This document shows, one piece after another, positions 52,821-52,909 of a DNA stretch of 64,000 nt. The stretch is from assembly GCF_056712565.1 (NCBI RefSeq), contig NZ_CM160072.1, one strand, 5' to 3'. Made by a program: the position numbers and the translations under genes. Within the stretch, counting starts at the first letter, position 1. Each line of letters begins with the position of its first letter. Below the pieces are notes generated by a model that saw only the letters and a program-made list of their open reading frames with translations, was not told where the DNA came from and made no database searches.

Positions 52821-52909
52821 TAACCAGAATGGCGAGTGTGTAAATGACTCGATGATGTTCAGAAATACCAGGCGGAGTACCATTTACGGCGACTCCACCG
52901 GGAAAAGAG

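Follow-up and report, generated by a model that had tools for sequence, protein, structure and literature searches.

An 89-bp yidL–yidE spacer in Escherichia coli as the probable scar of an old glv-yidP deletion

In the stretch of DNA analyzed here (64,000 nucleotides, called the window below), the genes yidL and yidE are immediate neighbors, and this adjacency very probably goes back to one old deletion event, in which the chromosome lost the glv-yidP module. The short spacer between the two genes is best read as a deletion scar, neither a generic intergenic region nor an empty insertion site: it retains a decayed 3' end of yidP, and the neighboring yidL is shortened. About 21% of complete E. 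coli genomes carry the same scar, as do several divergent Escherichia lineages.

Gene layout and the missing block

The stop codon of yidL (TAA, + strand) occupies positions 52818–52820 and that of yidE (- strand) positions 52910–52912, so that exactly 89 bp (52821–52909) lie between them. The open reading frame list, the sequence itself and the annotation of the type strain ATCC 11775 agree on these coordinates, which confirms the spacing given in the original prediction. Positions 51800–54700 of the window are 100% identical to ATCC 11775 over 2.9 kb, and RefSeq names yidL and yidE as adjoining genes there. The product of yidE matches the NCBIfam profile NF003007 over its full length (986 bits against a cutoff of 449, profile positions 1–552 of 553), the + strand frame encodes an AraC-family regulator, and the further neighbors are identified by NCBIfam as YidK (NF007790), IbpB and IbpA. 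Both yidL and yidE themselves appear intact. The features of the site are collected in Table 1.

Table 1. Features at the yidL–yidE site, in window coordinates
Feature	Position	Strand	Basis or remark
yidK (solute:sodium symporter), left flank	50072..51787	-	NF007790, 854 bits; K-12 alignment 97% identity, collinear, conserved
yidL (AraC-family regulator)	51954..52820	+	288 aa per ATCC 11775 annotation; alternative GTG start 51924
Deletion junction (probable)	52815..52820	+	BLAST breakpoints and base-by-base comparison
yidP 3' relic	52821..52913	+	All 89 bp of the spacer, with the TTAA shared by the yidE stop
yidE (putative AspT/YidE/YbjL-family transporter), right flank	52910..54571	-	561-aa ORF; B2-type allele

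The original prediction stated that K-12 carries the glv PTS genes and yidP between yidL and yidE. This is correct for both the K-12 record and MG1655, in which the order is yidK, yidL, glvG (a frameshifted pseudogene), glvBC (a PTS IIB/IIC pseudogene with an internal stop), yidP, yidE and ibpB. When the window is aligned with the K-12 locus by pairwise BLAST, two collinear blocks are obtained, with a break at window positions 52814/52820 that corresponds to positions 5578/8947 of the K-12 locus; 3,368 bp of K-12 DNA have no counterpart in the window. The K-12 copy is not the full allele, its glvG being ~508 bp shorter than the intact form. Between the same breakpoints, O157:H7 strain Z885 has an intact block of 3,876 bp, which encodes a 440-aa 6-phospho-alpha-glucosidase, a 538-aa alpha-glucoside PTS IIBC component (TIGR02005, 959 bits against a cutoff of 607) and the 238-aa GntR/HutC regulator YidP.

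The intact proteins were also used as tblastn queries against the whole 64-kb window, and no glv gene or full-length yidP was found in it. The GH4 6-phospho-alpha-glucosidase gave no match there, and the O157:H7 IIBC protein (TIGR02005 type) gave one spurious match of 28 aa inside yidE (E 1e-4). The BLAST gap and the tblastn searches thus both bear out the claim that the glvCBG-yidP block is absent, and the alignment to the MG1655/K-12 region that had been proposed as a check returns the block as missing and the gene order as the prediction gave it.

On the left side of the break, homology to K-12 yidL ends at position 52814, 33 bp short of the end of the K-12 gene. The last 10 codons of the K-12 gene are gone, the TAA at 52818–52820 is a new stop codon, and the YidL C-terminus reads ...KNTDR (stop) in the window versus ...KNTDQHPTDASPHN (stop) in K-12. 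AraC-family profile matches reach residues 290–296 of the 298-aa YidL ORF, that is, almost to its end; the C-terminal AraC-type helix-turn-helix domain, which binds DNA, therefore looks intact, the change being confined to a nonconserved tail after ...KNTD.

A separate observation concerns the intact allele. The glvBC-yidP intergenic region of O157:H7 (locus positions 5614–5647) contains, between the divergent genes, a perfect 34-bp palindrome, AGAGATCTACTTTTTCG/CGAAAAAGTAGATCTCT, which is absent from the window and is a plausible candidate operator for the GntR/HutC regulator YidP.

A yidP relic in the spacer and the proposed deletion

The spacer can be aligned with the end of yidP over its whole length. 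Positions 52864–52913 match yidP nucleotides 668–717, the final 50 bp of the K-12 gene including the stop codon, at 48/50 (E 4e-21), and positions 52853–52866 match yidP nucleotides 647–660 at 14/14. The local alignment score of the spacer against yidP is 87, compared with 17 +/- 2 for shuffled spacers. The relic has an internal deletion of 10 bp at ~52864–52866, and its two ends differ in how well they are preserved: in the left ~33 nt only 21/33 match yidP codons in register (36% divergence), whereas the right 50 nt diverge by 4%. Its translation runs ..NGECVNDSMMFRN and, after the 10-bp gap, 15 further residues, versus ..SGEFLNYSVMFRNASEYQVEYHLRRLHPEKS (stop) in YidP. The C-terminal peptide of the relic is in frame with the yidP stop, and, as in K-12, this stop shares a TTAA with that of yidE. 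Because the C-terminus of YidP is strongly conserved, indeed nearly invariant, in eight genera, the spacer relic represents decayed real coding sequence. A full-length yidP convergent with yidE is absent; only the frameshifted 3' relic at 52821–52913 is left. Nor was any promoter-like or terminator-like consensus, such as a terminator for the convergent genes, found at 52600–53100, and the scar gives no sign of any new function.

The distribution of the block was surveyed with one genome per GTDB species, using YidE as the query and mapping the neighboring genes by tblastn; 80 loci were taken in, none of them from E. fergusonii, E. marmotae or E. ruysiae. Citrobacter braakii, Klebsiella oxytoca, Kluyvera, Pseudocitrobacter and Dryocola are among the taxa that share the order yidE-yidP-glvBC-glvA-yidL-yidK-yidJ. 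In Citrobacter youngae, C. werkmanii, C. sedlakii, Salmonella enterica subsp. arizonae, Trabulsiella and Pluralibacter, yidL adjoins yidE with a short hairpin-like spacer, and no yidP relic is detectable in these spacers. At two Superficieibacter loci there is a tandem second yidP-glvBC-glvA module whose YidP paralogue is ~56% identical to K-12 YidP, and another surveyed locus (L026) has an extra yidP paralogue with 54% identity; the yidP-glvBC-glvA module can evidently be duplicated as a unit. At the level of the family, the survey is compatible with either gain or loss of the block.

This pattern bears on the reading that the window is the ancestral empty site, into which the glv-yidP block was inserted by horizontal transfer on the branch that gave rise to K-12 and the majority of E. 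coli. The variable presence of the block in Enterobacteriaceae, the genera whose yidL–yidE spacers consist of a hairpin-like sequence with no relic, and the tandem module of Superficieibacter, which suggests that the block can be rearranged as a unit, would all fit such an insertion. We nevertheless regard it as very improbable for the window, which retains the last ~34 yidP codons and the stop in the right position and orientation, something not expected of an empty site, and which has a shorter yidL than the block-bearing genomes. The block also has a native base composition, its GC content (52.0%) being close to that of the flanks (48.9% and 51.0%), and it lacks flanking repeats and mobility genes. 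Finally, in E. albertii, an outgroup to E. coli, yidP adjoins yidE. Since the spacer keeps the 3' end of yidP and yidL is shortened, the adjacency is better explained as a scar that cuts into both genes.

In the proposed deletion, 3,876 bp would have been lost relative to the intact allele, or 3,368 bp relative to K-12, whose glvG is already shortened. The removed DNA would comprise the last 10 codons of yidL, glvA/glvG (GH4), glvBC with the promoter/operator region, and approximately the first 205 codons of yidP; the leftover ~34 codons would then have decayed, by the further 10-bp deletion and several substitutions, into the 89-bp spacer. Illegitimate recombination, of the microhomology or end-joining type, is the most likely mechanism, because no repeats, IS elements or integrase genes are found at the ends. 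When the ends of the block in the intact allele were searched for direct repeats and att-like sites, no repeat family had copies near both breakpoints, and the intact O157:H7 block has no transposase or integrase, its annotated genes being only glvA, glvBC and yidP. As the left 33 nt of the relic are so much more diverged than the right 50 nt, the position of the right breakpoint is uncertain by ~40 bp, and something more complex than a single cut may have taken place.

Distribution of the scar in E. coli and other Escherichia

A 91-bp junction probe (window 52790–52880), which cannot seed on block-bearing genomes, was searched against 5,426 complete E. coli genomes. It matches 1,136 of them, once each and always on the chromosome, at 98.9% identity or more (1,047 genomes at at least 99%, the remaining 89 in the 95–99% range). 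The K-12 block is present in 4,282 of the 5,426; together the two counts give 5,418, as many genomes as match the region at all. Carriers of the junction include Nissle 1917, Seattle 1946 (ATCC 25922), the type strain ATCC 11775 and several APEC strains. The yidL–yidE configuration is already annotated in over a thousand public genomes. A literature search for glv or yidP loss tied to phylogroup B2 returned no report pairing 'glvC' with 'phylogroup B2', and searches on yidP, glvC and yidL matched only generic transcription-factor or genome papers.

One genome, HH45 (NZ_CP116411.1, locus ~4395–4990), was considered as a possible independent deletion and rejected: in it, ~600 bp of G/T-rich, low-complexity sequence replace the glv block from yidL to a partial yidP, and this stretch looks like an assembly or base-calling artifact, not biology. 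Artifact-like junk at this very locus in a public genome is what could be cited for the view that the adjacency in the window is itself an assembly or sequencing artifact, a collapsed region. That view has next to no probability, given that the exact junction recurs in 1,136 independent complete genomes, all chromosomal and in one place each.

The scar goes together with a particular allele of yidE. In 1,051 genomes yidE is at least 99% identical to that of the window (the B2-type allele), and in 4,276 it is 90–95% identical (the K-12 type, at ~94%); the B2-type allele, which is 6.5% distant from the K-12 allele, is linked to the scar, and the K-12 type to the block, almost perfectly one to one. 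The 25 kb around the site are 100% identical to O1/O2:K1:H7 APEC/ExPEC strains. The original prediction had taken the missing block as consistent with a non-K-12 lineage, and this can be refined: the 100% matches to ATCC 11775 and to the O1/O2:K1:H7 strains point to a haplotype typical of B2 strains, where B2 is inferred from the names of the strains (Nissle 1917, ATCC 25922, ATCC 11775, O1/O2:K1:H7) together with sequence identity. Two scar genomes with slightly different junctions, one of them B19374, are 98.4–98.9% identical to the window over 8 kb, and so belong to the same lineage.

The scar keeps changing. In E. coli B19374 (locus ~3995–4010) there is a secondary 14-bp deletion in it, by which the yidL stop is lost and YidL becomes 3 codons longer. 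'E. coli' E69, a divergent strain, differs in sequence at the spot of this deletion, and there too yidL is extended.

Beyond E. coli proper, E. whittamii, Escherichia sp. E1V33 and E69 (the cryptic lineages below) have the scar in common with the window, with an identical junction, the relic and the same 10-bp internal gap. Their flanks differ from those of the window by 7–13%, even immediately beside the scar, and in neighbor-joining trees of yidE, yidL, yidK, ibpA, ibpB and yidR, all six genes group the window with K-12 and not with these three. That divergent lineages share both the junction and the 10-bp gap implies a single, old deletion, and these sequence comparisons give good support for the scar being identical by descent in all of them. 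The other possibility, that the site is a deletion hotspot and the block was lost independently in B2 E. coli, E. whittamii, E1V33 and E69, would draw on the instability of the region: other genera are without the block, B19374 has its secondary deletion inside the scar, and K-12 has its own ~508-bp deletion in glvG. Such a recurrence is extremely improbable, for four lineages would have had to arrive at one junction position and also at one unrelated 10-bp deletion, with no repeats able to guide identical deletions.

The distribution of the scar (in B2 and the cryptic lineages, and in neither other E. coli nor E. albertii) conflicts with the trees of the flanking genes. The conflict calls for one of two histories, an ancient polymorphism that sorted incompletely or homologous recombination between the lineages; the scar predates the boundaries of these Escherichia lineages or has moved across them. 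A recent import of the scar into B2 from a cryptic clade can be rejected, since the flanks are diverged by 7–13% right up to the scar and the gene trees place B2 with K-12. The converse, that the K-12 block is a recent import from E. albertii, was also rejected, on limited evidence: the 3' end of yidP differs at 8/64 nt (~12%, counted by hand), similar to the 13.3% of yidE.

Individual sites in yidE are mosaic. Where the B2 and K-12 alleles differ, the cryptic lineages side with B2 at 49 sites and with K-12 at 23. Within the patch at 53800–54200 the numbers are 25 for B2 and 5 for K-12, and at 10 of those 25 E. albertii agrees with K-12. Together these site patterns give a weak hint that the K-12-type yidE allele, especially in this patch, is the unusual one; counts this small, in so mosaic a pattern, fit re-import of the block and deep polymorphism alike.

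A wider reading is that the scar is a trans-species polymorphism, in which one deletion arose before the split of E. coli from the cryptic lineages, or was exchanged across it, and has since coexisted with the intact operon. We put this forward as a speculation, more probably wrong than right by a good distance. If it were true, B2 would carry the 'cryptic-clade' allele, and other E. coli would have kept the intact allele or re-imported the block and the yidE patch. In the strongest version, putative selection on alpha-glucoside use in different habitats would keep both alleles, as opposed to neutral sorting and recombination.

The surrounding region shows other differences from K-12. At 48535–48582 yidI is missing: K-12 has ~593 bp, including yidI, between yidH and yidJ, and the window only ~48 unrelated bases. 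In E. whittamii, E1V33 and E69 this interval is similar in length to that of K-12, so the loss of yidI is not shared with the cryptic lineages. The sulfatase-like gene yidJ (48583–50075) is a pseudogene, with a 1-bp deletion in a T run at ~49024 (ATATTTTC to ATATTTC) that breaks the gene into two ORFs (354 aa and 137 aa); in ATCC 11775 it is annotated by RefSeq as frameshifted. Against a local background of 2–4%, divergence from K-12 rises to 12.8% at 53750–54000 within yidE and to ~10% at 56250–56750 (yidQ/yidR), which suggests that these patches are old recombination tracts; ibpA and ibpB, located between them, differ from K-12 by 0–1%. Lastly, cbrA (window ~57678–58778, from the ATCC 11775 annotation) is 1,101 bp long versus 1,065 bp in K-12, and overlaps the end of dgoT by ~40 bp, so that its C-terminus differs from that of K-12.

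Significance and relation to known systems

Carriers of the scar are likely without this PTS pathway for alpha-glucosides (isomaltose, the sucrose isomers and alpha-methylglucoside, among others). The experimentally characterized homologues are those of Klebsiella (aglA/aglB) and Bacillus (B. subtilis glvA-glvC), of which K. pneumoniae AglA/AglB give growth on alpha-methylglucoside, isomaltose and sucrose isomers, and the counterparts of aglA/aglB in K-12 are regarded as cryptic or truncated (PMC5309279). By homology with K. pneumoniae AglA/AglB and B. subtilis GlvA/GlvC, both the uptake and the hydrolysis of alpha-glucosides would be lost in the carriers. K-12 appears to have lost the same route independently by pseudogenization. 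The deletion in B2-type strains would then be a second, independent E. coli route to loss of the glv pathway, which O157:H7 and ST38 keep intact.

As a marker, the scar is clean and easily scored, and identifies the B2-type haplotype; it has little practical weight. Its presence in E. whittamii and other divergent Escherichia is the only point of wider interest and is mildly unexpected, as a small example in the genus of either an ancient shared polymorphism or homologous recombination between species.

Three known systems can be set beside the window. The glvCBG-yidP locus of K-12 occupies the same slot, with yidK-yidL on one side and yidE-ibpBA on the other, and the window keeps the last ~34 codons of its yidP; the window lacks glvG, glvBC and approximately the first 205 yidP codons, whereas K-12 has them all, with glvG and glvBC damaged. 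The intact glv/agl-type operon, represented by O157:H7 and ST38 and by K. pneumoniae aglA/aglB and B. subtilis glvA-glvC, would be the source state of the window allele. In E. coli it comprises, at the same site, a GH4 6-phospho-alpha-glucosidase, an alpha-glucoside IIBC component and the GntR regulator YidP, and it is absent from the window. More generally, E. coli has phylogroup deletion haplotypes, fixed presence/absence differences that track phylogroup and have a defined junction and a pseudogene relic. The scar resembles these in tracking phylogroup and in having both a defined junction and a pseudogene relic. It differs from them in being found also in non-coli Escherichia, whose flanks are 8–12% diverged, and hence is either of greater age than a typical marker of this kind or more readily moved by recombination.
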